Source: an uncultured Gammaproteobacteria bacterium (lineage in GTDB: Bacteria; Patescibacteriota; Microgenomatia; Levybacterales; UBA12049). Taken from it: a DNA stretch of 64,000 bases. The translations under genes and the position numbers were made by a program. Shown here piece after piece: positions 12,004 to 59,875 of the stretch. Within the stretch, counting starts at the first letter, position 1. Every line of letters begins with the position of its first letter. The notes below the pieces were generated by a model. The model searched no databases. It saw only the letters and a program-made list of their open reading frames with translations, and had not been told where the DNA came from. Location of the stretch: positions 16,739 through 80,738 of the forward strand of contig CAZBFH010000001.1 of assembly GCA_964491185.1 (NCBI GenBank), read 5' to 3'.

Positions 12004-12027
12004 CAAGGCCTCCCTGCGAGGCTAAAG
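12004..12027. repeat. Second copy of the GC-rich motif GGCCT(CCC)TGCGAGGCTAAA with short hairpin potential, directly after the stop of the priming transferase
   Basis: caaggcctccctgcgaggctaaag aligns with 6921-6937 (ggccttgcgaggctaaa). The gcctc/gaggc pair can form a 5-bp stem. Confidence 0.45.
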
Positions 12028-12688: not shown

Positions 12689-13762
12689 TTACGTAAGGTG
12701 TTCGTTGGGAGTTCCTGCGAGACTCTCTACTAACTTTTTAATTTTAGGAACAGAAGACTTAGGGCAAACCAAAACTACATCCTCAGTATTAATTACAAGC
12801 ATTTCCGATAAATCAATTCCTACAGTTAACTGGTTTGTGTAATTAAATACGAGGCTATCCCTAGAATCTTCTATCATGACTTTTCCCTTAGTCACATTTT
12901 CATCAACTTTTTCACTAAGCGCTTCTTTTAGAGCCTCCCACGCTCCAATATCACTCCACCCAATATCTACTGAAATTACTGAAATCTTACTTGTTGTAAA
13001 TTTCTCAAGTATTGCGTCGTCAAAACTAATCTTCTCAAGCGTTGGATAAATTTCATCAAGTGATTTTTCAAAATCTGAAGAGTCAACGATTTTGATAAGA
13101 TCCTCATACATTTGAGGCACAAATCTTTCAAATTTCTCAATCAGATAAGAAGGGGTTGTAACAAAATATCCTAAGTTCCAAACATAGTGTTCATCCTGAA
13201 AAAAGTCTTCAGCCTGAGACAGTTTTGGCCTATATTTAAGTTTTTTAAATTCTAACGCTCGAAGACCTTCCTCAGTCCAAAGCTCATCACCGCAATAAAT
13301 CCACCCTACATTTTGGTTTGCGAATCTGGGCTTTTGACCTATGAAAACAAAGTCTGATTTTCCATCAAGAATAGATTTTTCAGCCATACGAAGAGCTTTT
13401 TGAAAAATCTTAATCTCTCTAACCATATGATCACTCCAGATAATCGCCATGGGTTCGTTTGGGAATTTTTTATTAATTATGGCCGTTGTAAGTCCAATTG
13501 CAGGCCCAACATCTCTCATTTCGGGCTCAAAAATAAAATTATCTTTTGGAATCTCAGGGAGCTGCGAAATAACTATATCTTTATATCTTTTTCCAGTAGC
13601 GACATAAATATCTTGCGGGCTAAACTCCGGCTGAAGTCTTGCAACCGCATCTTGAAGAGTTGATTTGTCACCTATTAATTTTCCAAATTGCTTTGGAGTA
13701 TTCTTCCTTGATAGTGGCCAAAGCCTTGTTCCTACTCCTCCTGCGAAAATAACTACTTTCAT
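12689..13762 (-). CDS. manC: Mannose-1-phosphate guanylyltransferase (GDP-mannose pyrophosphorylase, no PMI domain)
   Basis: 357 aa. MKVVIFAGGVGTRLWPLSRKNTPKQF N-terminal nucleotidyltransferase motif typical of ManC. Confidence 0.78.
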   Translation of the reverse strand: MKVVIFAGGVGTRLWPLSRKNTPKQFGKLIGDKSTLQDAVARLQPEFSPQDIYVATGKRYKDIVISQLPEIPKDNFIFEPEMRDVGPAIGLTTAIINKKFPNEPMAIIWSDHMVREIKIFQKALRMAEKSILDGKSDFVFIGQKPRFANQNVGWIYCGDELWTEEGLRALEFKKLKYRPKLSQAEDFFQDEHYVWNLGYFVTTPSYLIEKFERFVPQMYEDLIKIVDSSDFEKSLDEIYPTLEKISFDDAILEKFTTSKISVISVDIGWSDIGAWEALKEALSEKVDENVTKGKVMIEDSRDSLVFNYTNQLTVGIDLSEMLVINTEDVVLVCPKSSVPKIKKLVESLAGTPNEHLT

Positions 13763-33318: not shown

Positions 33319-34972
33319 TTTTTTGACTACTAATACTTGCTACTCTTTCTCTTGTCTCATCTGTGATATCTATAACTTTTTGATTACTACTATCGATAAA
33401 AAAACCGTGAACCATTTCAGTTTCCAATTTTTTTTCTTTTATTTCGCTGATCATCTTATCAATATCTTGATAATAACCAAAACTAAGTGCGCCTTTTGCC
33501 TTGTATCCTTCAGCACCCAAATCCCAAAGATAATTTTCTTCTAAAAAGGCTTTCGGAATTTTTCCTGAATCAAAATACCATACCTCTAAAACATAACCTA
33601 AGCCATTTTGAAATGGATTAGTGATATTTCCATAATAGTTTTTATCGCTTATTACGTAAAAAATAGAATTATTATCTGGTGTAGGATAAATTTTCTTAAT
33701 TCCATTTAAAACTTTTACCCTCTCTGATCCAATTTTCTCCTGATAATTAATTTCATTTTTTATTACCTCTGCATGATGAAAGAAAAAGAATACCGTAATT
33801 GGAATTATCAAAAATTTCGCAAATCTATTTAAGCTAGATAAGTGATAAGCCACAAAACCAAATAATATAGAAGCTGTTACTGCTCCAACATAAAAATATC
33901 TTGATGAAAGATATGAACTGTCCCTATGAACAACCATGTAGGGAAGGAAGCTTAGAAAGAAAAAAGCAAGACAAAAAATAATATTTCTCTTAGTATTCCT
34001 ATCTTTTAACCTAAGAATAATTATTAGGATTATCCCCAAAATCGAAAAAGATCCAATTACTGAAACCATATCTGCAGCTAGACTTTGCGCAACTAAATCT
34101 CTTGCTGGAGAATCTATAAGAAATTTATACTGAGTTTTAATAATTTCAGGAGTCAAATTGTAGAGATCCGTAGGTGGAACAAAAATCTGAAACAGAGAAG
34201 TAAGCGGATATAAAACTACGTGAACAAGTGCAGACTTAATGGGACTTTGCCCTGCATTTACAAAGCCCACAGCATTATCGGTCCTGAAGAATAAACCAAG
34301 ATATCTAAAAAAACCAATGAGAGAGCCATAAATTAGCAAAGGTAAATGAACAATGAACGCTTCTCTTATTTTTATTTTTTCTTTAAAAGTAAAATAAGTT
34401 AAAGGATATAAAATAAATAAAAACAAAGCACTCTCCTTAAAAAGGAGAGAGATGAGTCCCAATAGATAACTTAGGTATAAAGTTTTTCTTTTCTCTGATT
34501 TTAAAAATTCTATGAAAAAAATTACCGAAAGAATTAGAAATGTTGTTGCGGGTAATCCACCCACAGCGGCAGCCCATGTCACAGCCTGGGAAGAAACGCT
34601 GGAAACTAAAAAGAACAATGATGCACTAAAAGAAATCCATGTTTTGTTAAAAAGTTTTTTCGCTAATATATAAACCAAAAGCGCGTTAATAACATGAATG
34701 GAAACAGCGAATGCGGCAATGGGTAAAATTTCAAATCTAAAATAATTGAGCAAAATTAAGTTAAGTGCGCGACTTAATGGTCTCCCACCCCCCAGCAAAA
34801 GCTGCTCCGGAGTTGTGTAATGAACAATATTACCGACTCCCTGAACTAAATTATGACCAATAGCTTGCCACTCATCTTGTTGATAAAAAGTTTTTGGGAG
34901 ATCCCAAAAGATAAATAAAGCCAATATTATTATTACCGGTAAATAAAAGTATTTTTTAATTATTTCGAGCAT
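33311..34972 (-). CDS. Polytopic GT-C-like membrane protein (PMT_2/GT39-like) with C-terminal soluble domain
   Basis: 553 aa. First extracytoplasmic loop YQQDEWQAIGHN with acidic DE motif, then about 11 TM helices. Confidence 0.45.
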   Translation of the reverse strand: MLEIIKKYFYLPVIIILALFIFWDLPKTFYQQDEWQAIGHNLVQGVGNIVHYTTPEQLLLGGGRPLSRALNLILLNYFRFEILPIAAFAVSIHVINALLVYILAKKLFNKTWISFSASLFFLVSSVSSQAVTWAAAVGGLPATTFLILSVIFFIEFLKSEKRKTLYLSYLLGLISLLFKESALFLFILYPLTYFTFKEKIKIREAFIVHLPLLIYGSLIGFFRYLGLFFRTDNAVGFVNAGQSPIKSALVHVVLYPLTSLFQIFVPPTDLYNLTPEIIKTQYKFLIDSPARDLVAQSLAADMVSVIGSFSILGIILIIILRLKDRNTKRNIIFCLAFFFLSFLPYMVVHRDSSYLSSRYFYVGAVTASILFGFVAYHLSSLNRFAKFLIIPITVFFFFHHAEVIKNEINYQEKIGSERVKVLNGIKKIYPTPDNNSIFYVISDKNYYGNITNPFQNGLGYVLEVWYFDSGKIPKAFLEENYLWDLGAEGYKAKGALSFGYYQDIDKMISEIKEKKLETEMVHGFFIDSSNQKVIDITDETRERVASISSQKND

Positions 34973-35948
34973 TTTGAGAATCTCTATACCATTCTATAGT
35001 TTTTTTTAAACCTTCGTCCAACATCACTTTAGGTTCATAGCCTATTTCTTTCCTAGCTTTCGTATTGTCACTATTCCTTCTCGGACTACCATTTGGCTTT
35101 GAAGTATCAAGCTCTATTTCATATTTCTTACCTGAGATTTTTAATATTTTTTCTACCAACTCTCTTACTGAAACCTCTTCATCGGTACCCAAATTAATTG
35201 GATCAGGCACAGGATATTTTTCTATAGCATGAATCATTAACTCAGCAAGGTCTGTGACATACAGGAAGGCCCGAGTTTGTTTTCCATCTCCCCAAACTAT
35301 TACAGGATTCTCTCCTTCAGTTATTCTTTTAATAAGTGCGGGAATTACATGAGAAGTTTGCGTGTCAAAATGGTCTCGGGGTCCATAACAGTTATAAGGC
35401 CTCACAATTCCAACCTTCATTCCAAACTCTTGTGCGTAATAATAACCTGACTTCTCATTTATTCTTTTTGCCCACCCATATCCTCCATTCGTAGGTTCGG
35501 GTTCATCTAAAAATCCTTCTGACTCAGGCGTCGGCACACTACAATTTCTTGGATAAACACATGCAGAGGAAATAATCAAAAACCTTTCTACTCCAGCTTT
35601 TCTGGCAGATTCAATCATTACAGAACCTATAAGTAAATTATCCCGAAGCATAGTCGCTTGGTGTTTTCTGTTATAGTCTATGCCTCCTACTCTAGCGGCA
35701 AGATTCATAACAATGCTTTGCCCCTGACAGGCTTTTTCTGAAATACTAGAATCAGTGCAGTCACCTTGAATAAATTGGAATTTCCCAGCATACGCTTCTA
35801 AATTCTTTATGCTTCCATTCTGAAGATTATCTAAAACTGTCACAACTGCTCCTCTTTCAATTAATTTTTCTACAACGTGACTCCCTATAAAACCTGCCCC
35901 ACCAGTAACTAATACTTTTTTATTTTTCCAAAACTGTGAGGTTTTCAT
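34956..35948 (-). CDS. NAD-dependent NDP-sugar epimerase/reductase (extended SDR)
   Basis: 330 aa. VLVTGGAGFIGSHVVEKL Rossmann motif, VLDNLQNGS, catalytic YGWAK (YxxxK), GKQTRAFLYVTDLAE. The SSACVYP segment lacks the Asp-Glu dyad of 4,6-dehydratases. Confidence 0.65.
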   Translation of the reverse strand: MKTSQFWKNKKVLVTGGAGFIGSHVVEKLIERGAVVTVLDNLQNGSIKNLEAYAGKFQFIQGDCTDSSISEKACQGQSIVMNLAARVGGIDYNRKHQATMLRDNLLIGSVMIESARKAGVERFLIISSACVYPRNCSVPTPESEGFLDEPEPTNGGYGWAKRINEKSGYYYAQEFGMKVGIVRPYNCYGPRDHFDTQTSHVIPALIKRITEGENPVIVWGDGKQTRAFLYVTDLAELMIHAIEKYPVPDPINLGTDEEVSVRELVEKILKISGKKYEIELDTSKPNGSPRRNSDNTKARKEIGYEPKVMLDEGLKKTIEWYRDSQNARNN

Positions 35949-36886
35949 TTTTTGGCTAAAATGTATAGACCTGGCCAGAATAAATCTGTACTTGAGGCAA
36001 CAAATCTGGCAATTTTTCTAAGAATATCAAATTTAAAATATTCAAAAAGTAATGGCACTTCTAATCGATTTACATCAATGTTTGATTTTTTAAATCCTGA
36101 CTCTTTAAATATTTTTCGAAGTTGTCTCTTCGTAAATGAATATTCATATCCATAAATCATACGTCTACTTTTAAATATTTTTATATGCACAAATTCAGCA
36201 ATTTGTTTTAAGACCGGAGCATTTGGGATGTTTCCCCAGACCTGCCTATATGTTAAAGATCCTAGGTTAAGATAAGGCACAGTATTGAATGCTACTCCGC
36301 CTGCTTTCAAGACCCTGTAATTCTCTTTTACAACTCCTACTGTGTCTTTAAAATGCTCAATTACTCCTCCACCATATAAAAGATCAAACGTGTTTTCTTT
36401 AAATGGCATCTTAGAAATATCACCACAGACTAATAGGTAATTCTTTATCTTTTCCTCATCTAAATAAAATTTAGCAAGCCTAAGCGCATTAACAGAGTAA
36501 TCAATTCCGACCACAAACGATCCCATTTTAGCTAGTTCTTGCCCTACAAAAAAAGGTCCACATCCAATCTCTAAATATTTCTTGTTTTTCAATGATGCAA
36601 AATTTCTCTTTATATATTTCATATTAGAATCAAGATAAGTATTTTGAAAACCTCTCTTTAAGCCCATGAGCTCTTTCTTATTTACCGTTTTTTTATATTC
36701 GTCATCCCATTTCTCAAGAGATAGCTTTACATCTTTCGCCATTGAGGAAGGTAGAAGAACTGGAACGTTATTTACGATGGGATAGTCTAGTTGACACTTA
36801 ACGCATTTTAGTTTTTTATTTTTCAAAACCAGATTTCCCCTACACTCAGGGCAACACAGAAACTTTACGTATTCTTCTTTAAACAT
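35945..36886 (-). CDS. SAM-dependent methyltransferase with N-terminal Trm112-like zinc ribbon
   Basis: 313 aa. CCPEC..CVKC four-Cys ribbon followed by class I MTase motif YLEIGCGPFFVGQELAKMGSFVVGIDYS. Confidence 0.65.
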   Translation of the reverse strand: MFKEEYVKFLCCPECRGNLVLKNKKLKCVKCQLDYPIVNNVPVLLPSSMAKDVKLSLEKWDDEYKKTVNKKELMGLKRGFQNTYLDSNMKYIKRNFASLKNKKYLEIGCGPFFVGQELAKMGSFVVGIDYSVNALRLAKFYLDEEKIKNYLLVCGDISKMPFKENTFDLLYGGGVIEHFKDTVGVVKENYRVLKAGGVAFNTVPYLNLGSLTYRQVWGNIPNAPVLKQIAEFVHIKIFKSRRMIYGYEYSFTKRQLRKIFKESGFKKSNIDVNRLEVPLLFEYFKFDILRKIARFVASSTDLFWPGLYILAKK

Positions 36887-40394: not shown

Positions 40395-40395
40395 A

Positions 40396-41424: not shown

Positions 41425-41425
41425 A

Positions 41426-43153: not shown

Positions 43154-43714
43154 TTAGGTAATTATCAAACGATTTTCTTTTATCTTTTTAATCACTTTTG
43201 CTGGATTACCTGCAGCCAAGGAATTCGCTGGAATATCTTTTGTTACAACACTCCCTGCTCCAATTACACAATTATCTCCTATCGTAACTCCTGGTAAAAT
43301 TATACATCTTGAAGTGATCCATACATTTTTACCAATCATAACGGGTTCTGCGATAATTCTTTGATAATCTTTTGGATCGTGAGTCGCTGTAATAATCATG
43401 TTTTCAAATGAAAAAGCTGACCCCTCTCCAATATACACAGGTGCATAGTCCATAATGAAAGTGTCATTAAGGTATACATTTTCAGCAAATATTTTTCCAT
43501 AAAAAAATCTAAAACCTGGTCCAAAATGAATATTGCGACAATCCTTTAAATAAAATTTAATAAAAAATTTAAATGGAGAAAGTAAAAGCAGAAACTTACT
43601 AAAAAGAACCATCATTAGAATAAAGTTTTTAGGCGGAATCGGTTTATAAACAATTGTTTCTTTTTTCATAGAAATTTTATTTCTCGTAATTATACAATGT
43701 TTTACGTAATCCAT
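43154..43714 (-). CDS. Hexapeptide-repeat sugar O-acetyltransferase (paralog of 23564-24118)
   Basis: 186 aa. IGKNVWITSRCIILPGVTIGDNCVIGAGSVV hexapeptide repeats and an N-terminal hydrophobic segment. Start may be the internal MKKETIV. Confidence 0.7.
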   Translation of the reverse strand: MDYVKHCIITRNKISMKKETIVYKPIPPKNFILMMVLFSKFLLLLSPFKFFIKFYLKDCRNIHFGPGFRFFYGKIFAENVYLNDTFIMDYAPVYIGEGSAFSFENMIITATHDPKDYQRIIAEPVMIGKNVWITSRCIILPGVTIGDNCVIGAGSVVTKDIPANSLAAGNPAKVIKKIKENRLIIT

Positions 43715-45184: not shown

Positions 45185-45877
45185 TTATTTACTTTGAAAA
45201 TAAAGCTGATTAAGCAGCGAGAGAATAAATTTGAGCCCAGTTATTGTTTTTAACTTTGACCTTCCCCATCCCCGTGCTCTCTCCCTACTTGGAATCTCCT
45301 TGATCTCATAACCCTTTTTAAGAACTGAAACTACCATCTCTTGTTCAACGCCAAAATCATCTGATTTTAATTTCAAACTCTGCGCAGTAGATTTCCTAAT
45401 CGCTCTAAAGCTGTATAGAATATCAGTAAGATTGGTCTTAAATTTTTGATTTACTAATGCAACAAGCACATCACAACCTGCAGCCCTAATTATTCCTATT
45501 AAATCGATGGTCACATCTGCACTTCCTCCTGTCCTTCTAGAGCCTATTACAAGATCTGCTTCATTTTTTAAAATGGGCTCTACGAAATCTGGGATATCAT
45601 TTTCGTCGTGTGATCCATCTGCATCAAAAAAAAGAATTATGCTTTTTTTTGCATTTTTAATTCCTATTTTTAAAGCATCTCCTCTTCCCTTTCTGTGATC
45701 CAAGAAGAATCTTGCGCCAAATTTTTCAGCTATCTCTCGCGTTCCGTCATTCGAATGACCATCAACTACTATTATGTCTGAGGAATATTTCTTAACTGAC
45801 TCGAGGATTTTCTTAATTCCTTCACCTTCGTTTTTACAGGCAATTACTATACTTACCTTGGATTTGTCGTAAGACAT
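45185..45877 (-). CDS. Soluble DPM-synthase/Ppm1-like GT2 (polyprenyl-phosphate sugar synthase candidate)
   Basis: 230 aa. VSIVIACKNEGEGIKKI..IIVVDGHSNDGTREIAE..FFDADGSH. Confidence 0.68.
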   Translation of the reverse strand: MSYDKSKVSIVIACKNEGEGIKKILESVKKYSSDIIVVDGHSNDGTREIAEKFGARFFLDHRKGRGDALKIGIKNAKKSIILFFDADGSHDENDIPDFVEPILKNEADLVIGSRRTGGSADVTIDLIGIIRAAGCDVLVALVNQKFKTNLTDILYSFRAIRKSTAQSLKLKSDDFGVEQEMVVSVLKKGYEIKEIPSRERARGWGRSKLKTITGLKFILSLLNQLYFQSK

Positions 45878-46603: not shown

Positions 46604-49096
46604 CTAAAGCTTTATGCGAGGCTTTAAAGTAACTGAATTTATTAAAATCTCAAACGGCCCGTCACCAAAGTCTAATGAGACATTTGTAAAATATTTTTTT
46701 AGATAATCACCACTTCCAGAATAAATTTCCCCTTCCGGTATTTCAGCATTTATTTTTTGATTTGCCAAACTAAATTTAAATGGAAAATATAAGTATTGAT
46801 AGTTCTGAACAGATCCTGTTTTATTCGTTTCCCACGTTAATTTTGCCCAAAAAGTATCAAGTCCGATTTTATGCAAATATTCTAGGTCTTGATGTCCATT
46901 CATAAAATCAAACATATTTACCATATCCTTGAATAATCTACTCCTATCACTATAAAGACCGACTATATCATTTGAAGAAGAATTGATAACTTCGAATTCA
47001 TCAATAGCTACAAAATCTCCTCCTGAAGTTGTATGAATCTCCATTTTTACGTATCTCGCAATAACAGGATCGAAGGAATCAATTTTTTCAAAAACAGTAG
47101 AATTTTTTACATCTATAACTTTTTTCCAATTCTTGTTGTCCCTAGAAACTGAAACTGAATATGTTGCAGGAATTCTCGTAGATTTCTCTAATGATCCCCA
47201 TGACACTGCAGAAATTTCCTTCTCCATTCCCAAATCCACCTGTATCCAAGGCACGAATGAGTCTGCAATCCACATGGATCTCTTACCCGGATTCCCATCA
47301 ATTAAATTTTTAGGCAAAACGTGAAAGAAGGGTTCTCCCTCTCTTTGAGACATTGTGTATGCTGTTTTTACTTTCACAGTTTTAAGATACTCATTTCTCT
47401 GAAGAGAGTAATTTGCTAATGCTCTAAACTTCTGGCTGTCTGGATTTCTTCCAATAACACTCAAAACCTCAAAAGCACTTAAATCCATATCCAAATTATA
47501 TGGCAAATCGACAACTGGACCCTGGAAATTAGAACTCTTGTAAACATTGTCAAATTTATTAATACTGATTTGATAATTTTTTTGGTTTAAGAGTAATTTT
47601 TTTGTTCTTTCAGTTTCATTAATTAATCCATTACTCAAACTGTGATCTAAAAAAACGACATCATTAATATTCACCTTGCCATTTTTTACTTTTGAAAGAA
47701 CCGCAATAAGCTGAGATTCAACTCTAAAAGGCTCATCTTCAAGATTTGAGTACTTTTTATCTTTAATCGTAAACCACTCCAAAAGATAATCTCCTAAAGC
47801 AGGAGCATGCGGATATAAATAAAAAGTAGTATTGTCAGAAAGTTTTGGAAAATATGAATTAAATTTTGTATAAAAACCTTTGGCTGGCTTGTAAAAATCT
47901 ACATACACTTCCCTTTCAATTTTCCATATTAAAATAAGATTAACAACCACAACTACTGCAACGAATAATTTTAATAGCTTTAAATTCGTAAAATAATTGA
48001 TTAAAATTATTCCCAAGAGAACACTGGTTCCTAAGAATGCAAAATACCTATAACGCATTGTGTTGTATTCATATGCTCGCGATAAAACCTCCGGAGTACT
48101 AGGAACAGCAAGTGAAACAAATACTGAGAACAGCCCTAACCAAATTAAGAAAAATAAAAATATTCTAAAATATGCTTTAGATTTTTTCAGTTTTAGCCAA
48201 ATCAATCCAAATAATCCAACGGTCATCCATCCAACAGCTGGAAAAAAGTATTTATTCATTGTTTCGTAATAAACAAACTTCGAACCTTGTTCCCTTAAAT
48301 AGTTCATAAGATCATATGGAATAATTTGCGGTGGAATTAGTTTTCCAATCGTGAGAAATGCAGCCTTAGCATACTCAAAATACAATCCATCACTCATAAA
48401 CCTCATTTGGAGCTTTACATTCCCATCAGCTGTATCTCCCGGAGTACCCCCATATAAGGATCTAATTAAAAAGAATCCCAGGATTATTAACGCGAATGGA
48501 ATTTGTCTTTTTACAATTCCCAAGATTTCTTTTTGTGAAAAAATATTTTTTGTAAAAATGACATCCATTGCAAAAATTAGAGGAATTAATACAATTCCTG
48601 TCTCTCTGACAAAAAATCCCAAAAAAGCTGAAAGAAGAGAAAGAACAAGCATTCTTTTATCATTTTTTTCTTTATATTTAAAAAATGCAGTTAAGCTTAT
48701 AAGTAAACAGATTAGGAGTAATGGATAATAAGAATTAAAGCTTCCCCAAGTGAGAACGTCGTTATAACAAGTGGTGACAGTGAAAATTAACGAGGAAATA
48801 AATGCAAGTTGTCTCTTTTTCGAAATCGTATATATAAATTTATAGAATAGAAGATAGGCAATTACTTGAACAATTAAAGCTGTTAAATACCATCCCCAAG
48901 GATTCCAACCAAATATTTTCCAGTCCAGAAAATATAAAAATCCATGACCTTTGATTAAATTTACTACCGTGTATGGAGCAATACCCGTTAACCACGTAGC
49001 TTCATACGCCTTAAAAAACCAAAAATTTAGTGTTGGGAACCAAGCTAGTACTCCAAGAAACGCAATAATTAAGTAATTCCTTTTATCTGGATTCAT
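46604..49096 (-). CDS. Polytopic membrane protein (GT-C-like) with C-terminal extracytoplasmic F5/8 type C (discoidin) carbohydrate-binding domain
   Basis: 830 aa. About 13 N-terminal TM helices. C-terminal NLIDGNPGKRSMWIADSFVPWIQVDLGMEKEISAVSWGS matches the discoidin signature (W..........WIQVDLG....I..V). Confidence 0.5.
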   Translation of the reverse strand: MNPDKRNYLIIAFLGVLAWFPTLNFWFFKAYEATWLTGIAPYTVVNLIKGHGFLYFLDWKIFGWNPWGWYLTALIVQVIAYLLFYKFIYTISKKRQLAFISSLIFTVTTCYNDVLTWGSFNSYYPLLLICLLISLTAFFKYKEKNDKRMLVLSLLSAFLGFFVRETGIVLIPLIFAMDVIFTKNIFSQKEILGIVKRQIPFALIILGFFLIRSLYGGTPGDTADGNVKLQMRFMSDGLYFEYAKAAFLTIGKLIPPQIIPYDLMNYLREQGSKFVYYETMNKYFFPAVGWMTVGLFGLIWLKLKKSKAYFRIFLFFLIWLGLFSVFVSLAVPSTPEVLSRAYEYNTMRYRYFAFLGTSVLLGIILINYFTNLKLLKLFVAVVVVVNLILIWKIEREVYVDFYKPAKGFYTKFNSYFPKLSDNTTFYLYPHAPALGDYLLEWFTIKDKKYSNLEDEPFRVESQLIAVLSKVKNGKVNINDVVFLDHSLSNGLINETERTKKLLLNQKNYQISINKFDNVYKSSNFQGPVVDLPYNLDMDLSAFEVLSVIGRNPDSQKFRALANYSLQRNEYLKTVKVKTAYTMSQREGEPFFHVLPKNLIDGNPGKRSMWIADSFVPWIQVDLGMEKEISAVSWGSLEKSTRIPATYSVSVSRDNKNWKKVIDVKNSTVFEKIDSFDPVIARYVKMEIHTTSGGDFVAIDEFEVINSSSNDIVGLYSDRSRLFKDMVNMFDFMNGHQDLEYLHKIGLDTFWAKLTWETNKTGSVQNYQYLYFPFKFSLANQKINAEIPEGEIYSGSGDYLKKYFTNVSLDFGDGPFEILINSVTLKPRIKL

Positions 49097-50123: not shown

Positions 50124-51268
50124 ATCAAATCTCCTTTTTTAAATGCATTGTCTAATGTTTTTTCAATATCGGTATCCTCTGACATTCTCAATGCATTTTC
50201 TCTAAGCGACATATAAAATTTTCTATCCAAAATAAGTTTTTCAATTGCTTGCGCTAGTTCTTTTTTGTCTTTTTTTATGTATATCCCTGCATTATTTGTT
50301 TTAATTTCTTCTGCTGTTCCAATATTTCCTGATATAACAACTGGAAGACCTAGAGCTAAATAGTCTCTCGCTTTCATCGAATCGCTGTAATAAGACCAAG
50401 GAGCATTATCAGTATAAATTGCAATTCCGATCCCTTGCGTAGCTAGAATCTCAAATACTTCTTTATGAGTTTTTAAACCCGCTAAAATTATATTTTTCGA
50501 AAGCTTTCTTAGCTCAATATCTTTTTTTAGATCATTCATTCCTTCACCCTGTCCGATAATAGTGAGTTTTAACTGGGGATGTTTTTTAACTAAAGTCTGC
50601 ATTGCATCAATAATTAATCCAAAATCAAGAGCTTTTGAAATTGTACCAATTGTAATTAGGTTTTGGGAATTTGGACTCTTACTAATTAGCTTTTTAATCT
50701 CTCTTACAGCGGGGGCATTGGGGACTAAGAATAAATTTTCTTTTTTCTTACCCTGAATTATCCGCAAATCAAAAATTCTGGATGAAACCACCCATGCCTG
50801 ATCTGATAATTTTAATGTGATTTTATCGATAAAATGATAAAGATTATTTAACACAGAATTACTAAACCTTTTAGGAGAGTAGTCAACCGTAAATGAAATA
50901 AGCTTATTCACTTTTCCAGTCTTCTTTAAAATTAACCCCCAAAGACTATTTAGAGGATCGATTCCAATGTAAGCCACCTTTTTACTCTCTATATATTTAT
51001 TCACAATTCTAATTGTCTGAATTCCTTCAATAACTCTATTCAATGGCTCAAAAAGACTTATATTGGAATCAATTTCAAACTCCTTAGATTTACCATCTTT
51101 TTTTAAATGAATTAATGTTTTGTCTCCTTTAAAAAGTGAGTGCCTAATGAAGAGATAATCCTCACCTTTTTTATCCAGATAAGAGACAATATTGTGTGCG
51201 GGTCCCGCTACGTCTTTTGTATCAGAGAGGACTGCATGAGTTACTACTATAAATTTATTTTTCATCAC
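50120..51268 (-). CDS. GT4-like glycosyltransferase (paralog of 36879-38033)
   Basis: 382 aa. See the alignment under 36879-38033. C-terminal GT-B domain ...GLPVVISGNIGTAEEI. Confidence 0.65.
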   Translation of the reverse strand: MMKNKFIVVTHAVLSDTKDVAGPAHNIVSYLDKKGEDYLFIRHSLFKGDKTLIHLKKDGKSKEFEIDSNISLFEPLNRVIEGIQTIRIVNKYIESKKVAYIGIDPLNSLWGLILKKTGKVNKLISFTVDYSPKRFSNSVLNNLYHFIDKITLKLSDQAWVVSSRIFDLRIIQGKKKENLFLVPNAPAVREIKKLISKSPNSQNLITIGTISKALDFGLIIDAMQTLVKKHPQLKLTIIGQGEGMNDLKKDIELRKLSKNIILAGLKTHKEVFEILATQGIGIAIYTDNAPWSYYSDSMKARDYLALGLPVVISGNIGTAEEIKTNNAGIYIKKDKKELAQAIEKLILDRKFYMSLRENALRMSEDTDIEKTLDNAFKKGDLI

Positions 51269-52139
51269 TCATTTTCTTTAGCCCTTCGATTATTTTAAGC
51301 GGCTTAATATTTAATTGTTTTTCAATTTTTAATGTGACAAAAGTTGTGTCCTTTGGCCTTGGGACAATATTTTTAAAAAAATCACTCGTTACTGAATTAA
51401 TAAGACTTGTGTCTAATCCAAAAACCTTCGCAGTCATTATGGCAAGATCGTATCTATTTATGGATTCTGCTCCACCCACATTATATGTCTCGTTAATCTT
51501 ATTCTTTTTTATAATTTCCCAAATTACATCTACTGCCTGACCTACATAGAGGTGGTTGTTGTACACATCATTTACTACATTAATTGTATTTTTTTTCTTA
51601 AGCTCTTCGATAACCCATCCAACAGGATTATTTCTTCCTCCTTTTGGCGCCCAGCCATACATTGTCATAAGCCTAATTATGGAATACTGCACTCCACTTT
51701 TTTTTATTATTTCTTCACCTTTCTCCTTAGTATATCCATAATAATCCAGTGGATGAATCTTCGAATCCTCAACATATGGAGGTTTTTTCCCATCAAAAAT
51801 TGCATTAGATGAAGTAAATATTACAAATGATCCGAACTCACTTGATGCATCAACAATATTTCTTGTCCCACCAACATTTATATTTTCCGCCTCATTCTTA
51901 TGAGTCTCACAATAGTCAACGTTCCCAATTGCAGCTGCATGCACAATATAATTTGGTTTTATTTTTCTTACTAAGTCAAACACCTCATCTCTATTTGAAA
52001 CATCAAGTGGATAGAAGTTTTTTTTCTTTAAATTACTATTTCTGTTAAATGTTCCAAAAAGTTCGAAGTCCTTATGAGAAGAGTCAAAAAAATATTTACC
52101 AAGAAGTCCTGTAGCTCCAGTAAATAAAACTTTTTTCAT
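51255..52139 (-). CDS. RmlD-fold NDP-sugar 4-reductase (CDP-abequose/paratose synthase-like)
   Basis: 294 aa. LFTGATGLLGKYF Rossmann motif. TSSNAIFDGKKPPYVEDSKIHPLDYYGYTKEKGE (YxxxK). Confidence 0.6.
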   Translation of the reverse strand: MKKVLFTGATGLLGKYFFDSSHKDFELFGTFNRNSNLKKKNFYPLDVSNRDEVFDLVRKIKPNYIVHAAAIGNVDYCETHKNEAENINVGGTRNIVDASSEFGSFVIFTSSNAIFDGKKPPYVEDSKIHPLDYYGYTKEKGEEIIKKSGVQYSIIRLMTMYGWAPKGGRNNPVGWVIEELKKKNTINVVNDVYNNHLYVGQAVDVIWEIIKKNKINETYNVGGAESINRYDLAIMTAKVFGLDTSLINSVTSDFFKNIVPRPKDTTFVTLKIEKQLNIKPLKIIEGLKKMSDEK

Positions 52140-53324
52140 TTATTTTTTACTCCTGAAGTATTTGTGGAATTTTTTAATCATATAATCTAATTCTTTTTGT
52201 GTTATTCCCATATGGCACCCTATGTAGAACGCATTACTATTAAGTTTTTTTGATACTGGGTACTTATATTCTATATCACCAAATAATTTTTTGTATACTG
52301 GTTGATTTACTAATGGTAGTAAGTATCTTGTCTCTACTAGATTCTTTTCTAAATAATTAACTAAGTCATTTCTGCTGTAGGGATCTTTAACAACAATCGG
52401 ATAGAACATGAAAGCGTGCTCAGTGTCTTTTCTTACTTTTGGTAGTTGTAAATATTCCTGTAAAGATTCCAGACCTTTTGATAAATATGCTGCATTTTTT
52501 TGTCTTTTTTTAATCATTTGCTTGTGTCTCTTTATCTGGCCGTAACCAATCGCTGCTTCAAGCTCAGTTGCTCTATATGAATAACCTATGTGTTCAAACG
52601 AAAATCTCTTGCTTACTATATTGAATAATTTTTTATTGTCTTTTACTTTATCATCGTCCATCGAAAGATATATACTATCTCTTCCATGATTAAATAGGCT
52701 TTTAATTAGAATCGCCAATTCAGGATCATTAGTTGTAGCAAATCCCCCTACTCCAGTTATTAAAATATGGGCAACGTAGGTTGAAAAACATGATACCTCA
52801 CCCCAGGAACCGGCAGGATTACCTTTATATTTTGCAAACATAGTCTCACATGAATCCTCCAGAATCTTAAGCCTATGTTTTTTAGCGATCTTTAGAATTG
52901 GATCCATATCGCAGGGATGCCCACCGATATGCACAGGAATGATAGCTCGAGTTTTTTTTGTTATAACTTTTTCAATTTTCGTAGGATCAATTTCAAAATA
53001 ATCAGGCTCCACATCTACAAACACAGGTTTTAATTTATTTTGAAGAATAATATTAACTGTAGCTACAAATGTTAGGGCAGGAACTATAACCTCGTCGTTA
53101 TCCTTCCAATTGTATTTGATTTTTAAAGCATGAAGTCCTGCTTGAAGAGCACTAGTTCCACTGTTACAGAACATTGCGAATTTCCTATCATGAGCTTTCC
53201 TAAATTCGTACTCGAACTTTTGATGATATTTTCCATATGACAGTCTTTCTTTAGTAAGGGCATCTAAGACATACTTTCTCTCAAGCTTTCCGATGGAGGC
53301 GTCTCCAACGCCAATTTGTCTCAT
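52140..53324 (-). CDS. DegT/DnrJ/EryC1-family PLP/PMP enzyme with His replacing the Schiff-base Lys: NDP-4-keto-6-deoxyhexose 3-dehydrase-like (E1/DdhC or ColD type)
   Basis: 394 aa. GEVSCFSTYVAHILITGVGGFATTND aligns with the family consensus GD.GCFSFH.TKN.TTGEGGAV.TND, with H at the lysine position. Confidence 0.55.
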   Translation of the reverse strand: MRQIGVGDASIGKLERKYVLDALTKERLSYGKYHQKFEYEFRKAHDRKFAMFCNSGTSALQAGLHALKIKYNWKDNDEVIVPALTFVATVNIILQNKLKPVFVDVEPDYFEIDPTKIEKVITKKTRAIIPVHIGGHPCDMDPILKIAKKHRLKILEDSCETMFAKYKGNPAGSWGEVSCFSTYVAHILITGVGGFATTNDPELAILIKSLFNHGRDSIYLSMDDDKVKDNKKLFNIVSKRFSFEHIGYSYRATELEAAIGYGQIKRHKQMIKKRQKNAAYLSKGLESLQEYLQLPKVRKDTEHAFMFYPIVVKDPYSRNDLVNYLEKNLVETRYLLPLVNQPVYKKLFGDIEYKYPVSKKLNSNAFYIGCHMGITQKELDYMIKKFHKYFRSKK

Positions 53325-53349: not shown

Positions 53350-54360
53350 TTATTTTCTATTTAGCGATTTATTTACAACAGCCGCTCCATAAACTAATAG
53401 AAATGCAAAACAAACAAAAGGATGCAAAAACCATGCAATATCCCTGACTTTTAGATATCCCCTAACACTATCCATAAATGGCTTTATGAATGTTGCGGAA
53501 TAAATAACAAATTTAATAAGTCCTACGCGATCTGTCGAACTTACATATACCGCATATCTTCTTTTTTTCAAACTTTCAAAGTATTGTTTTTCCATTATTT
53601 TCCTGCGTCTTGCCATAAATCTTATAAACCAAAGTATTTTGGTTTTTTTGTAATGAATTATGTCATCCTTAACAAAGGCATACGTGTTATACCCCTTTTT
53701 GATTAAGTCATAATTTATATCAATATGGAAAAAATTCTCAGGTCCTTGAACAGTGTGTCTTAAGAGATCTCGTCTAATCATTGCGCCATTTGCCCCTAAT
53801 GTTGGAATTTTGGGTGGAGAAAACTTAACTAAAAAATATTTACCCATGTCTTGGCTTTCACCTAAAAGGTTATAGCTATCAAATGCCCAAGAAAGCCTTG
53901 CATCTTTTCCAAGATAGTATGGAACGGGATCAACTCCTCCAATTAATGCGAAGTATCTATCCAGGATATTATCATTTTTATTGTGATTAAAACGAAGAAC
54001 CTCAACTCCTGTTATCTCGCTGTTCTCAACTAGTGGCGCAACCATATTCTTAAGCCAATTTTTGTGCGGCAAGATATTATCGTGATCAATTAAAAGAATA
54101 ATTTCATTTTTTGCATGTGAAACAGCAACGCCTTTGTTGTACTCAGCTTCTTGTTTTTCCGGTGGAATTTTAAACAATTTATGAGGATAATTTTTTAAAA
54201 TCTCTAAAGTTTTGTCCTTGGATCCACCATCCGCAATTAATAACTCGATCTTTTCTTTGGGATAATCCTGAGAGAAAAGACTATCTAAAGAAAGCTTTAA
54301 GGAAAACTCAGAATTATATGTTGCCATTGCTACTGAAATGGATGGAAGTTTATTTATCAT
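53350..54360 (-). CDS. GT2 glycosyltransferase with C-terminal TM segment (paralog of 38033-39010)
   Basis: 336 aa. ISVAMATYNSEFSL..LLIADGGSKDKT. C-terminal RDIAWFLHPFVCFAFLLVYGAAVV. Confidence 0.72.
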   Translation of the reverse strand: MINKLPSISVAMATYNSEFSLKLSLDSLFSQDYPKEKIELLIADGGSKDKTLEILKNYPHKLFKIPPEKQEAEYNKGVAVSHAKNEIILLIDHDNILPHKNWLKNMVAPLVENSEITGVEVLRFNHNKNDNILDRYFALIGGVDPVPYYLGKDARLSWAFDSYNLLGESQDMGKYFLVKFSPPKIPTLGANGAMIRRDLLRHTVQGPENFFHIDINYDLIKKGYNTYAFVKDDIIHYKKTKILWFIRFMARRRKIMEKQYFESLKKRRYAVYVSSTDRVGLIKFVIYSATFIKPFMDSVRGYLKVRDIAWFLHPFVCFAFLLVYGAAVVNKSLNRK

Positions 54361-55469
54361 TGGTTTGCAAATTCTAAAAATTTATCAGTCGTATTTTCCC
54401 AAGTATGTTTTTTTCTCTCATCAATTGCTCCCTTTTGAAGTTTTAAGTACAAATCATCGCTAGTTAAAATTTTCTGGATGTTTTCAGAGAGATTTTCAGG
54501 GTTATTTTGACTACAAATTATTCCATTAATATTTTCCTTAACAATATCCCTAAGTCCAGGAACATTATAAACGACAGCTGGAGTCGCTCTAGCGCCCGCT
54601 TCGTGCACCGTAAGTCCCCATCCTTCTTTTACTGAGGGGGCGATCAATAAATGAGCTCTTGTTAAAAGTTCTTCCTTCTTTTCTTCACTCACAAAGTCTA
54701 AAAATTTAACATTTTCTAAAAGATCTAAATCCTTAACTAATTTTTTAAGCTCATTGACAAAATAATCTTCTCCGCGCCCTATTATCCAAAGTTTGATTTC
54801 TGGAATATTTTCTTTAATCAGTCCTACAGCCTTAATTGCATCTATTACTCCCTTTGTTCTAGAAAGCCGCGAAACAAAAATGATAGTTTTGTCTTTTTCT
54901 TTCCTAGGAAGTGCTGTTACCACATTTGAGTTTGATCCCATCGGAATAACTTTCACCTGTGATTTCGAAAATCCATTCTTTTCAATTTCTATTTTTGAAG
55001 ACTGCGAAATCGTAATAATAGGTATATTTTTATAAAAAATTGGGTAAATTTTTTCAATTATTTTTCCTAAAATATTGAAAGGGAATCCAACAGCAATATT
55101 CCAAAGATCTCCAGCTATTTCACAAATTAAGGCGACTTTTCTCTCCCGAACATAAAGAGTGGTAAAGAAAGGTATTCCATGCACTTCATCAATTACTAAA
55201 TCAACTTTCCCTTGAAAATCTTTTTTATAAAGCTTAAAGGCGAGGAAATGAACTGATTTAAAAAGTCTTCTCGCATCTGGATCACCAGTTCTAATTATCC
55301 TAACGCCATCTATCATCTCCTCTTCTTTTGCATCAGGAAACTTCGCGCTAATTTGCGTTACTGTATGTCCTTTCTTTACGAAACCAGCCGCCAACTCTTG
55401 TGTCAGTATTTCCGCTCCACCTGATAAAGGATTTTTAATATCTCTCCAGTTTAAAATTAATATTTTCAT
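54357..55469 (-). CDS. Glycosyltransferase family 4
   Basis: 370 aa. MKILILNWRDIKNPLSGGAEI N-terminus. C-terminal EGWGLTVHEAGARATPAVV. Confidence 0.8.
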   Translation of the reverse strand: MKILILNWRDIKNPLSGGAEILTQELAAGFVKKGHTVTQISAKFPDAKEEEMIDGVRIIRTGDPDARRLFKSVHFLAFKLYKKDFQGKVDLVIDEVHGIPFFTTLYVRERKVALICEIAGDLWNIAVGFPFNILGKIIEKIYPIFYKNIPIITISQSSKIEIEKNGFSKSQVKVIPMGSNSNVVTALPRKEKDKTIIFVSRLSRTKGVIDAIKAVGLIKENIPEIKLWIIGRGEDYFVNELKKLVKDLDLLENVKFLDFVSEEKKEELLTRAHLLIAPSVKEGWGLTVHEAGARATPAVVYNVPGLRDIVKENINGIICSQNNPENLSENIQKILTSDDLYLKLQKGAIDERKKHTWENTTDKFLEFANQ

Positions 55470-56800
55470 ATATCTGTATAAAGAATTATCGCCAGAAAAC
55501 TTAGCGAAAATATTCCAATTAAAAATAAGTAATTCAAAACAGGGATATAATTCTTAATTTTTTTATTTTGGAAAAATAGAGGCAACAAGCTCAAACTTGA
55601 TAAAAATAGATATGATCTAAAAACAATGAATGAAAATCCGAACATCTTAGTCCATGTTAGTTCTAAAAGTGAAAGTCCTATAAATAAAATAAACATAAAT
55701 GTAAGAAGAATATTTTTATTAAAATAATCTTTTATAAAAACAGCTAATGAAATTGCAAGAAATGGATAGAAGGGATACCTATACCATCCATGCCCTGGTT
55801 CGTTTGGAATTGCAAAAATAAATACCCCAAGATAAGCAAGGAGTCCTAGAACTGGAATTAAATTTTTTCTAAAATCTTTCAATAAAAGCAAGAAAAACGA
55901 TATCCACCCGAAATAAATCCATCCATCGATTAAATGTCTATCTGCCAAAAAGGGATCCTTAAAAATCGCGTACACGCTATTAAAAGTAAGATCGTATCTT
56001 TGAAGCTGCAACTTCCATAGACTAACGAAAAGATTCCAATCGTAATAATATCCATAAGCTAAGTAACCTAAGAAAAATAATAAGACAGTCGAGAATACAA
56101 TTAGACTTTCTTTATATTTTTTAAAATATATTAAAATTGAAATAACTGCTAAGCTCGCGGCTATCCATGGAATTTTTGAAATAATTAGTAATCCACAAAT
56201 AAGAGAAGCGATAATAATAAAAAACTTATTATTGGTTTTTATATACTTAACAGTTAGTAAAAGTGCCGTAAGAAAACCTGGAATAAAAAAATTCTCATTT
56301 TGAACAAGCCTTGAACCAATTGCAACAGTTGGAATTACTGCATAAATTAAACTTGTTAAAAGGGCAGTTTCTCGATCATAAACTTCTTTTACTAAAAGAA
56401 AAAGCACTCCAATCGAAATCACACCAAGAATGATTGCAAGTGGACGAATCCTCCCAACGTCAATGTCATACATGTTATCTGCTCCATTTAAAATAGCGAA
56501 TGATCCAGCAACAATTCCAAAAAAAGGTGGATGCTCTAGATAAGGATTAACTATCCAGAACGCGGCTCCTTTATAAATAAGGTGATCTCTCTCAGAATTA
56601 ATATATTGTGGATGAGATGACCAAGATTTCGGTACTCCTTCTTGAAAAAGATTTACTCCAAGCCATGTCCAAGCAAACTCATCCATTGTTGCGCCAAATC
56701 TAGGTGCAGTTTGATAATGATGGAACCTTAAAACAAATCCTATTAGAAGAATGGGAATTAAAATAATGAGAGTTTTACTCTTAAAAAGACTTACAATCAT
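55466..56800 (-). CDS. GT-C glycosyltransferase of the PMT/ArnT (GT39/GT83) type
   Basis: 444 aa. First loop MDEFAWTW...EGVPKSW with the DE motif, then YLEHPPFFGIVAGS (cf. the eKPPL motif of ArnT/PMT). About 11 TM helices. Confidence 0.55.
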   Translation of the reverse strand: MIVSLFKSKTLIILIPILLIGFVLRFHHYQTAPRFGATMDEFAWTWLGVNLFQEGVPKSWSSHPQYINSERDHLIYKGAAFWIVNPYLEHPPFFGIVAGSFAILNGADNMYDIDVGRIRPLAIILGVISIGVLFLLVKEVYDRETALLTSLIYAVIPTVAIGSRLVQNENFFIPGFLTALLLTVKYIKTNNKFFIIIASLICGLLIISKIPWIAASLAVISILIYFKKYKESLIVFSTVLLFFLGYLAYGYYYDWNLFVSLWKLQLQRYDLTFNSVYAIFKDPFLADRHLIDGWIYFGWISFFLLLLKDFRKNLIPVLGLLAYLGVFIFAIPNEPGHGWYRYPFYPFLAISLAVFIKDYFNKNILLTFMFILFIGLSLLELTWTKMFGFSFIVFRSYLFLSSLSLLPLFFQNKKIKNYIPVLNYLFLIGIFSLSFLAIILYTDI

Positions 56801-58817: not shown

Positions 58818-59875
58818 TTTTTATTGAAAATTTCAACATATGCATCATATGTTTCTTTAGCAGTCTTTTCCCATGAGAATTTTTTTACATTTTCAAATCC
58901 TTGCTTTATTAAATTCTCTCTAAATTTTTCATCTTCAATAACCCCACTTAACCCTGCTTTAATTGAATCAGTGCTTAATGGATCAACATAACACGCCCCA
59001 TCTCCTGCCACCTCCGCAAGTGACCCTAATTTTGAAGTTATAACAGGACAACCCGACTGCATCGCTTCAAGAATTGGCAAACCAAAGCCCTCATAAAGTG
59101 AAGGCATCACGAGAACAGTTGCAACGTTATATATCGCTACCAAATCCTCATCGTCAACAAAACCCAAAGAAATAACTTTATTATTTTTTGACGCAAGTTC
59201 TTGTGCTTTCTTTAAATCCTTATTCCAGAGATTATCAGCATCATATTGAGTATTTTTAAACGCCTGTCCAACGATCACCAATGAATAATTAGTATTATTT
59301 ATTGCCTCAATAAGTCTTGGAAGATTTTTATTTGGAGTAACATCTCCTACATATAGAGCAAACTTATCAGGTAAACTAAATTTTCTAACCACTTCTTTCT
59401 TTTTTTCTTCAGTAATTTGCCTAAAGTGCTTGGCTGCCGCAAGATAAATTACTTTAATTCCCGATGTTTCGTAACCAACGATTTTCGCTATATCTTTTTT
59501 TGATGATTCTGAATCTGTAATAATTAGATCTGAATTTTTAAGTATTTTTTTTTGTATTTGCCATTTAAATGCCCCTTTTATACCAACTGGGAAATCATTC
59601 CTGAAAACTAACGGGGTGAGATCATGAACCGTTATTATTGTTTTTACAGTCTTTATGATGGGAAGTGTTATAAAAAATGGTTCAAAATATGGGTAATGGA
59701 TTAGATCAGTTGAGTGAGAGATTTTATCACCTCTCTTAATCAAAACGAAATCCTCTGGGCCATATTTTTCTATTAAGGCCTCCTTGAGATTATTTAAGTA
59801 AAATCCAGTACCTCTTACTCTATGCTGAAGATAATGGCCGGAAGTTATGGGAGAAACATCAATTGCTACCTTCAT
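58814..59875 (-). CDS. Glycosyltransferase family 4
   Basis: 353 aa. EGFGLPILEAMQSGCPVITSKLGSLAEVAGDGACYVDP. Confidence 0.8.
   Translation of the reverse strand: MKVAIDVSPITSGHYLQHRVRGTGFYLNNLKEALIEKYGPEDFVLIKRGDKISHSTDLIHYPYFEPFFITLPIIKTVKTIITVHDLTPLVFRNDFPVGIKGAFKWQIQKKILKNSDLIITDSESSKKDIAKIVGYETSGIKVIYLAAAKHFRQITEEKKKEVVRKFSLPDKFALYVGDVTPNKNLPRLIEAINNTNYSLVIVGQAFKNTQYDADNLWNKDLKKAQELASKNNKVISLGFVDDEDLVAIYNVATVLVMPSLYEGFGLPILEAMQSGCPVITSKLGSLAEVAGDGACYVDPLSTDSIKAGLSGVIEDEKFRENLIKQGFENVKKFSWEKTAKETYDAYVEIFNKK

Follow-up and report, generated by a model that had tools for sequence, protein, structure and literature searches.

A predicted ColD-like sugar 3-dehydratase of E1-like sequence in the glycan gene cluster of a Levybacteria-like bacterium

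Positions 52140–53324 of a 64,000 nucleotide stretch of contig CAZBFH010000001.1 (termed here the window) carry an open reading frame (ORF) whose predicted product belongs to the DegT/DnrJ/EryC1/StrS superfamily and displays a histidine at the position of the lysine that binds pyridoxal 5′-phosphate (PLP) in aminotransferases. The protein can be considered, with good confidence, a nucleoside diphosphate (NDP)-4-ketohexose 3-dehydratase that is independent of an E3 reductase. A narrower assignment is probable, at a lower level of confidence: a ColD-type, glutamate-recycled guanosine diphosphate (GDP)-4-keto-6-deoxymannose 3-dehydratase that feeds a 3,6-dideoxyhexose into a surface glycan. By sequence comparison the query belongs to a large radiation of His-type DegT enzymes that is uncharacterised and for the most part cluster-less.

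The Catalytic Histidine

The minus-strand translation of this ORF contains GEVSCFSTYVAHILITGVGG exactly as quoted in the initial annotation; the plus-strand frame is stop-ridden. The Pfam profile DegT_DnrJ_EryC1 (PF01041) covers residues 11–386 of the 394 amino acid chain (E = 1.1e-93). This full-length match, together with retention of the cofactor aspartate and the phosphate loop, places the protein within the superfamily. The SGT loop is found at residues 55–57 and Asp157 is at the cofactor-N1 position. Residues S55, G56, E156, D157 and S181 are identical across the family, E1 and ColD.

A phmmer comparison with PDB sequences pairs the query segment STYVAHILITGVGG with SFYPAHHITMGEGG of wild-type E1 (3bcx) and also with SFYPAKHITMGEGG of the E1 H220K mutant (3bb8), thus His186 of the query corresponds to E1 His220, the Schiff-base position. 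A three-way MAFFT alignment of the query with E1 residues 41–433 and ColD residues 20–376 (both recovered from PDB alignments, ColD via representative P0227) sets His186 on the first histidine of the ColD YSHH motif, which is His188. A short PDB query around the His loop did not show ColD among the alignments listed. His186 is present in all 121 sequences of the set formed by the query and its closest database homologues, and in 192 of 192 family members when genome loci are added. These alignments indicate that His186 is neither a chance substitution nor a misalignment. The initial annotation had described a DegT enzyme with His in place of the PLP-binding Lys and had proposed alignment with E1 and ColD as a check; the alignment bears the description out.

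The residue that precedes His186 is Ala185. Alanine is also found at this position in E1, and serine in ColD. Most Lys-bearing relatives display an Asn-Lys pair, and asparagine is not found before the query histidine. In both respects, i.e. His for Lys and a residue other than Asn before it, the query agrees with the E1/ColD/SpnQ group of 3-dehydratases. Conversion of ColD to a transaminase reportedly required S187N and H188K together, and PDB entry 3gr9 is this double mutant. The His-for-Lys substitution is the key difference of 3-dehydratases from aminotransferases, and the His-for-Lys DegT enzymes characterised so far are without exception 3-dehydratases (PMC8987622). On this ground the reading of the motif as a signature of NDP-4-ketohexose 3-dehydratases such as E1 and ColD, and not of aminotransferases, is upheld.

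The Iron-Sulfur Site and the E3 Reductase

E1 and SpnQ carry a [2Fe-2S] cluster on four cysteines and require an external reductase, whereas ColD has no cluster, its intermediate is hydrolysed and pyridoxamine 5′-phosphate (PMP) is regenerated by glutamate (PMC8987622). A search for the E1 cluster cysteines had been suggested in the initial annotation. The motif tested, C-X57-C-X-C-X7-C (Cys193, 251, 253 and 261), is absent from the query. The Cys193 position is kept in the family, as Cys159, and in the alignment none of the 192 family members has a cysteine at E1 positions 251, 253, 257 or 261. A conserved G-R-D-x-I-Y-L-S-x-D-D-D stretch replaces the E1 cluster cysteines.

No ferredoxin-reductase-type (Fer2/FAD) protein is present among the annotated ORFs of the window, and the plant-type 2Fe-2S ferredoxin cysteine pattern is not found in any of its six frames. 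The same pattern occurs in one of 890 neighbour proteins of related loci, and that one resembles a zinc ribbon. An E3-like reductase was found neither in the window nor in the 72 related loci. Since the E1 cysteines are missing and no E3-like protein is present, a ColD-like cofactor logic is suggested. The query is like ColD in having no iron-sulfur motif and no dedicated reductase; the Fe-S motif, a score above the RfbH cutoff and the window partners expected of an E1 enzyme (E3 and a cytidine diphosphate (CDP)-glucose 4,6-dehydratase) are all lacking.

The family has conserved cysteines of its own, namely C53 (170 of 189 members), C159 (183 of 192), C179 (191 of 192) and C370 (178 of 192). 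Only C159 matches an E1 cluster ligand (C193). An alternative iron-sulfur site built from these four residues was considered and set aside; cysteines at positions 159 and 179 are also found in aminotransferase 7b0m and in other DegT relatives.

Family Placement

Pairwise identity of the query is 31% with E1 and 28% with ColD (over ColD residues 20–376; 132 bits), and E1 and ColD are 32% identical to each other. By these values the query protein is an orthologue of neither, and its family forms a deep lineage of its own among His-type DegT enzymes, the third beside E1 and ColD. The best NCBIfam model for the query is RfbH (NF011936), with 267.6 bits, which is below the cutoff of 423. Full-length scores against PDB sequences are 190 bits for aminotransferase 7b0m, 188 for E1, 182 for GDP-perosamine synthase and 132 for ColD. 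The two parts of the chain differ in their resemblances. The N-terminal two thirds resemble GDP-perosamine synthase (182 bits; also the top Foldseek match). The C-terminal half is clearly E1-like: E1 reaches 121 bits there, perosamine synthase 67 and ColD 63. The query, E1 and His-type enzymes share an insertion of about 20–30 residues after the GRD motif that aminotransferases lack; the median length of the segment is 29 residues in His-type enzymes and 15 in aminotransferases.

An AlphaFold2 model of the query has a mean confidence (pLDDT) of 85. In a Foldseek search of the PDB it matches perosamine synthase, E1, ColD, ArnB and WecE, all at TM scores of 0.8–0.9. As the model matches all of these DegT structures about equally, the fold comparison does not discriminate between them.

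A profile search covered 1.84 billion cluster representatives (50%-identity clusters), of which the best 150 were read. The catalytic position is His in 132 of these, Lys in 15, Cys in one and Gln in one, and the remaining one is a fragment. The two that have neither His nor Lys, P0144 (STYCGC, Cys) and P0172 (STAGSQ, Gln), may be variants that arose in sequencing or assembly, or may represent a genuine change of function. At least three cysteines in the insertion, as in E1, are found in only 14 of the 132 His-bearing representatives.

The close family (51%–94% identity) was detected by two signature peptide motifs in at least 231 species representatives. Its hosts are found among phyla of the candidate phyla radiation (CPR), Chloroflexi, Armatimonadota, Elusimicrobia, Acidobacteria, Planctomycetes, DPANN archaea and Methanosarcinales. 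In databases the members are termed aminotransferase or perosamine synthetase, the latter used by JGI for some. These names are automatic family labels and represent a misannotation. A description of the family was not found in searches of the accessible literature on colitose together with Patescibacteria and on GDP-colitose or ColD enzyme names. One family member, P0140, is interrupted by an intein.

Gene Context in Related Loci

ORFs were called and neighbours clustered in 72 non-redundant related loci. The reference enzymes (Gmd, Fcl, RmlB, RmlD and others) were those of E. coli K-12, and an identity of at least 45% was required of a Gmd orthologue. The commonest neighbour of the dehydratase is a cluster of short-chain dehydrogenases/reductases (SDR). 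Three examples of it, at positions −1 or +1, score 460–533 bits on TIGR01472 (GDP-mannose 4,6-dehydratase), above the cutoff of 415. Of the 72 loci, 22 have a Gmd orthologue as the immediate neighbour of the dehydratase, and in 24 one lies no more than six genes away; for Fcl-like SDRs the corresponding numbers are 13 and 23. RmlB, the dTDP-glucose dehydratase, is found in none of the loci, and CDP-glucose 4,6-dehydratase in four. The recurrent order Gmd/dehydratase/Fcl-like SDR is the layout of the colitose pathway (Gmd-ColD-ColC). The initial annotation had proposed a search for a CDP-glucose or GDP-mannose 4,6-dehydratase; in the related loci the partner is Gmd and not a CDP- or dTDP-glucose enzyme.

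The query is 52%–62% identical to the Gmd-adjacent members, which are 49%–98% identical among themselves. There are 89 columns that are invariant in the Gmd-adjacent members; the query keeps 85 of these, E1 46 and ColD 40, and the four changes in the query are all conservative. Because the identity lies in the same range and 85 of the 89 columns are kept, the query is very likely isofunctional with the Gmd-adjacent members.

Several records of metagenome-assembled genomes, L007 (CAYORA010000009.1), L009, L013 and L023, are titled "uncultured Gammaproteobacteria bacterium" and have gene content and synteny that are CPR/Levybacteria-like. The title of these records looks like a taxonomic mislabel.

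Proposed Pathway

From the above we infer the chemistry, the GDP substrate in this genome, the final sugar and its destination as follows; the steps through regeneration of PMP are those of the published ColD mechanism. As there is no Schiff-base lysine, PMP would be bound non-covalently by the enzyme. A ketimine would arise between PMP and the C4 carbonyl of a nucleotide-linked 4-ketohexose, most likely GDP-4-keto-6-deoxy-D-mannose made by Gmd. His186 would then remove the C4′ proton and the 3-hydroxyl would leave. Hydrolysis of the ene-amine would yield GDP-4-keto-3,6-dideoxy-D-mannose and ammonia, and L-glutamate would regenerate PMP, neither an iron-sulfur cluster nor E3 being required. 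Reduction at C4, with or without epimerisation at C5, could be carried out by the RmlD-like SDR (51255–52139) and/or the Fcl-like SDR (34956–35948) of the window. The product would be a GDP-3,6-dideoxyhexose, e.g. colitose or an isomer, and the sugar would enter the surface glycan specified by a 52-kb cluster in a CPR (Levybacteria-like) bacterium. In Campylobacter jejuni HS:5 and HS:11 a ColD-type dehydratase that depends on PLP and L-glutamate acts with a separate C5-epimerase and C4-reductase (PMC10440746).

Several observations weigh against this assignment. The main gap in the GDP reading is the absence of a 4,6-dehydratase from the window: neither Gmd nor another enzyme of this kind is found in the 64 kb, the best tblastn match being of 25% identity. 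The initial annotation had noted that no E3 and no obvious 4,6-dehydratase are present, and the ORF annotation, tblastn and the six-frame cysteine pattern agree. Nor is a 4,6-dehydratase found within 10 kb of the gene in L090 and L091, the loci of close relatives; the relatives examined (P0003 and P0011) share the synteny of the window. Two thirds of the related loci are without an adjacent Gmd. In five loci (L042, L043, L046, L070 and L083) a gene for a true glucose-1-phosphate cytidylyltransferase, above cutoff at 355 bits, comes directly after the Gmd/dehydratase/Fcl-like trio, and in four of these a CDP-glucose 4,6-dehydratase-like SDR is next, L083 stopping at the contig edge. As GDP- and CDP-deoxysugar genes stand side by side there, CDP substrates are conceivable. 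At 28% identity to characterised ColD, function is transferred by signature and context and not by orthology. Confidence in the structural model is lowest at the His loop (185–191) and at the insertion (215–222).

The window also contains a four-gene minus-strand module at 39007–42133 that consists of a cytidylyltransferase-like gene, an SDR, RmlC and RmlD. The glucose-1-phosphate cytidylyltransferase-like enzyme scores 216 bits, below the cutoff of 300; RmlC (194 bits) is above its cutoff and RmlD (210 bits) is just below the cutoff of 224. The SDR (40396–41421) has SSCSIYG where 4,6-dehydratases have their acid/base pair and does not look like a 4,6-dehydratase or like Gmd. Among solved structures its best relative is 6vo6 (133 bits), taken here to be the C4-dehydrogenase Cj1427. 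By analogy the gene set suggests oxidation, epimerisation and reduction towards an NDP-L-hexose with the 6-hydroxyl retained, a logic resembling that of the C. jejuni HS:2 heptoses, and not a 6-deoxy pathway. The initial annotation had listed this block of CDP-glucose pyrophosphorylase, RmlC-like and RmlD-like genes with the dehydratase. The genes are present as described, and they probably form a separate pathway.

Alternative Readings

The module at 39007–42133 invites the reading that the dehydratase acts on a 4-ketohexose with its 6-hydroxyl retained, supplied by SDR 40396–41421 from the product of the adjacent cytidylyltransferase-like enzyme, to give a 3-deoxy sugar. This would account for the lack of a 4,6-dehydratase in the window and near the gene in close relatives, and it agrees with the SSCSIYG sequence at the acid/base site of the SDR and with 6vo6, the presumed Cj1427, as its nearest solved relative. 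There is also a precedent in vitro, where Cj1427 and a C. jejuni ColD-type dehydratase produce GDP-3-deoxy-4-keto-heptose (PMC10680097). However the SDR lies 10 kb away within a complete four-gene module of its own, its homologues are near the dehydratase in only two of the 72 loci (at 30%–33% identity), and the family-wide partner is Gmd. A 3-deoxy route is thus distinctly unlikely here.

Of the characterised 3-dehydratases E1 scores highest (188 bits; 121 vs 63 for ColD over the C-terminal half) and RfbH is the best NCBIfam model. Taken with the glucose-1-phosphate cytidylyltransferase-like gene in the window and CDP-glucose 4,6-dehydratase near the gene in four of 72 loci, this could indicate a CDP-4-keto-6-deoxyglucose 3-dehydrase of the abequose/paratose/tyvelose/ascarylose type that is served by an external electron donor. 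But at 267.6 bits the RfbH match falls far short of the 423 cutoff, the insertion is without its three cluster cysteines throughout the family, neither the window nor the neighbourhoods contain an E3-like protein, and there is no CDP-glucose 4,6-dehydratase in the window; of the readings weighed here this is the least probable. That the protein is no dehydratase at all, and instead a His-bearing transaminase, an enzyme of other PLP/PMP chemistry or catalytically dead, is very unlikely. SpnQ shows aminotransferase activity in some conditions, i.e. without its reductase (PMC8987622), and in databases the family goes under the names aminotransferase or perosamine synthetase. These names are automatic labels, however, and strict conservation of His186 and of 85 of 89 invariant positions argues for an active enzyme. 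All characterised His-for-Lys DegT enzymes are 3-dehydratases (PMC8987622), and the Gmd/Fcl context mirrors the colitose pathway. The ColD-type GDP-4-keto-6-deoxymannose 3-dehydratase is the preferred assignment.

The Glycan Cluster of the Window

From about 12.0 kb up to its right edge the window has genes on the minus strand only, and together they comprise a glycan cluster of approximately 52 kb (12022–64000). It includes a priming phosphoglycosyltransferase, ManC, many glycosyltransferases of families 2 and 4 (GT2 and GT4), at least six glycosyltransferase fold C (GT-C)-type proteins, a flippase and GalE. Table 1 shows the features with their positions.

Table 1. Features of the window, and dehydratase–GT2 fusions in related loci and database proteins.
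Feature	Length (aa)	Position or identifier	Strand	Remarks
His-type DegT enzyme	394	52140..53324	minus	predicted PMP/PLP-dependent NDP-4-ketohexose 3-dehydratase
RmlD-fold SDR	294	51255..52139	minus	predicted C4 ketoreductase on dehydratase product
GT2 glycosyltransferase	336	53350..54360	minus	directly upstream of dehydratase, 25-nt spacer
Priming phosphoglycosyltransferase		12022-12687	minus
ManC-like mannose-1-phosphate guanylyltransferase	357	12689..13762	minus	Pfam NTP_transferase and ManC_GMP_beta-helix
GDP-L-fucose-synthase-like SDR	330	34956..35948	minus	candidate ColC-type epimerase/reductase for GDP-4-keto sugar
Methyltransferase with N-terminal Trm112-like zinc ribbon	313	35945..36886	minus	adjoins Fcl-like SDR
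DPM1/AglJ-like GT2	230	45185..45877	minus	predicted polyprenyl-phosphate sugar synthase
GT-C-type, PMT_2		18020-19459	minus
GT-C-type, PMT_2		46604-49096	minus	with F5/8 type C lectin-like domain
GT-C-type, PMT_2		55466-56800	minus
GT-C-type, AftD-like		29878-33318	minus
GT-C-type, YfhO/PTPS-related		59872-61524	minus
GT-C-type, MptA_B	371	61521-62636	minus
Large proteins without family match		19481-22753, 27587-29560, 33311-34972, 43677-45143	minus
Fusion loci		L016:8591-11179, L019:2951-5563, L075:9794-11863, L082:9998-11857		His-type DegT + GT2
Fusion proteins		P0121, P0124, P0127, P0131, P0204, P0210		His-type DegT + DPM1/AglJ-like GT2

The stop codon of the dehydratase abuts the ATG of the RmlD-like SDR (TAAATG), and AGGAG is found 10 nucleotides upstream of this ATG; the two genes are probably translationally coupled. 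The SDR matches Pfam RmlD_sub_bind (1.6e-49) and scores 148.7 bits on NCBIfam rmlD, below the cutoff of 224, and about 90 bits against PDB dTDP-4-dehydrorhamnose reductases. Its position is the same in the close relatives L007, L008 and L090; in L091 a methyltransferase separates it from the dehydratase. The arrangement around the dehydratase gene is common to relatives at 79%–93% identity. The upstream GT2 (neighbour cluster c7) is always at position −1 and is kept in six related loci.

Two genes that fit a GDP-sugar route had been overlooked in the initial annotation. The ManC-like protein scores 220 bits on TIGR01479, where the match spans the guanylyltransferase portion of the model; it shares 30% identity with E. 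coli CpsB and is the predicted source of GDP-mannose for the cluster. The GDP-fucose-synthase-like SDR aligns with E. coli Fcl along its whole length at 33% identity. Its score for NCBIfam GDP-L-fucose synthase is 208.8 bits, below the cutoff of 500, and its PDB matches are GDP-fucose synthases (189 and 157 bits) and GDP-mannose 3,5-epimerase (153 bits). Homologues of it at 50%–56% identity adjoin or neighbour the dehydratase in many loci. A protein with the domain make-up of the adjoining methyltransferase is the one located between dehydratase and reductase in L091, and a zinc-ribbon/GT2/methyltransferase module that resembles it is fused to the dehydratase in Chloroflexi.

At the right end GalE is cut by the window edge. 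An exact copy of the MptA_B protein is found on a 5.4-kb contig that ends inside GalE.

Fusions and Lipid-Linked Donors

A DPM1/AglJ/ArnC-like GT2 cluster is found within six genes of the dehydratase in 32 of the 72 loci, and the dehydratase is also fused to a DPM1/AglJ-like GT2 in both orders. The Chloroflexi loci show an N-terminal zinc ribbon followed by GT2, methyltransferase and dehydratase, and P0121 has the same order of GT2, methyltransferase and dehydratase. The order with the GT2 at the C-terminal end is represented by one Acidobacteria locus, one Oligoflexia locus, P0127, P0131, P0204 and P0210. The Oligoflexia fusion ORF is no artefact, because at 37% guanine plus cytosine the DNA is too AT-rich for a spurious long ORF. 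These independent fusions suggest that the product of the dehydratase is handed to a polyprenyl-phosphate carrier, and the repeated coupling to polyprenyl-phosphate glycosyltransferases hints at lipid-linked 3,6-dideoxyhexose donors.

In the window the closest match to the dehydratase-fused GT2 domains (P0121, P0127, P0131, P0204 and P0210) is the DPM1/AglJ-like protein, which scores 130.8 bits on NCBIfam AglJ, 73 on PpgS and 67 on dolichyl-phosphate hexose transferase. Several DPM1/ArnC-like GT2 genes are present in the cluster and, with the set of GT-C proteins, imply that this CPR bacterium relies heavily on lipid-linked monosaccharide donors. A more far-reaching scheme, which we regard as speculative and rather unlikely, is that in the third lineage the dehydratase product is loaded on polyprenyl phosphate by a dedicated DPM1/AglJ-like GT2 and transferred outside the membrane by GT-C enzymes, as in the Arn system; in the clade of the window, where no Gmd is in reach, a C4-dehydrogenase might supply a 4-ketohexose as the substrate, and a natural 3-deoxyhexose would result. 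To our knowledge a 3-deoxyhexose of that kind has so far been made in vitro only.

Other fusions of family members were also seen. P0125 is fused to a GT4, and P0130 and P0137–P0139 have N-terminal SDR domains. P0231, a four-Cys, E1-like His-type DegT protein, carries a fused RmlD-fold SDR that is 34% identical to the window protein at 51255–52139.

Significance

This kind of enzyme and its pathway are already well known, and the work represents a sound re-annotation and not a new type of biology. What is new is modest but real: a large, phylogenetically broad and misannotated lineage that has an E1-like scaffold minus the iron-sulfur site and a recurrent genetic link to polyprenyl-phosphate glycosyltransferases. 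If the assignment is correct, 3,6-dideoxyhexoses reach beyond the O-antigens of enterobacteria and their relatives, which are their main known source, and a widespread family would produce these sugars in CPR bacteria, DPANN archaea, Chloroflexi, Elusimicrobia and others. As a natural intermediate form, E1-like in sequence and without the iron-sulfur site, the family bears on the divergence of reductive (E1/E3) and hydrolytic (ColD) C3-deoxygenation. In practical terms, annotation of the family can be corrected, and the query is a candidate enzyme for synthesis of GDP-3,6-dideoxy sugars.

Comparison with Known Systems

ColD (WbdK; E. coli O55, Y. pseudotuberculosis) and its heptose-pathway homologues in C. 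jejuni HS:5 and HS:11 share with the query the DegT fold, the histidine at the Schiff-base position, the lack of an iron-sulfur motif, an insertion after the G-R/W motif and no need for E3. The Gmd/dehydratase/GDP-fucose-synthase-like order of the colitose pathway recurs in one third of the related loci. The query differs in that it is only 28% identical to ColD, whereas characterised ColD enzymes are 62%–67% identical among themselves (PMC10440746). It has Ala and not Ser before the histidine, there is no Gmd in the window, and the downstream partner is an RmlD-fold reductase and not ColC. The query family is also often fused or adjacent to a DPM1-like GT2, unlike ColD.

GDP-perosamine synthase (Per) of Caulobacter crescentus (3bn1, 3dr4) is the top structural match, with TM scores of 0.85–0.92 and 29%–30% identity. 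Its substrate is GDP-4-keto-6-deoxymannose, as proposed for the query, and it matches the N-terminal part (182 bits). However Per displays the Asn-Lys pair, has no 20-residue insertion, and transaminates C4 instead of removing the 3-hydroxyl.

Among characterised 3-dehydratases E1 (AscC/DdhC/RfbH; CDP-6-deoxy-L-threo-D-glycero-4-hexulose 3-dehydrase; Yersinia, Salmonella) scores highest against the query, with 188 bits and 31% identity. The Ala-His dyad, the long insertion after GRD and Cys193, kept as Cys159, are common to both. Unlike E1, the query lacks Cys251, Cys253 and Cys261 and has I-Y-L-S-x-D-D-D instead, it has neither E3 nor a CDP-glucose 4,6-dehydratase in the window, and its score is under the RfbH equivalog cutoff. 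Judged from sequence, the query thus has the appearance of E1 and the predicted working of ColD, and it stands outside both orthologous groups.

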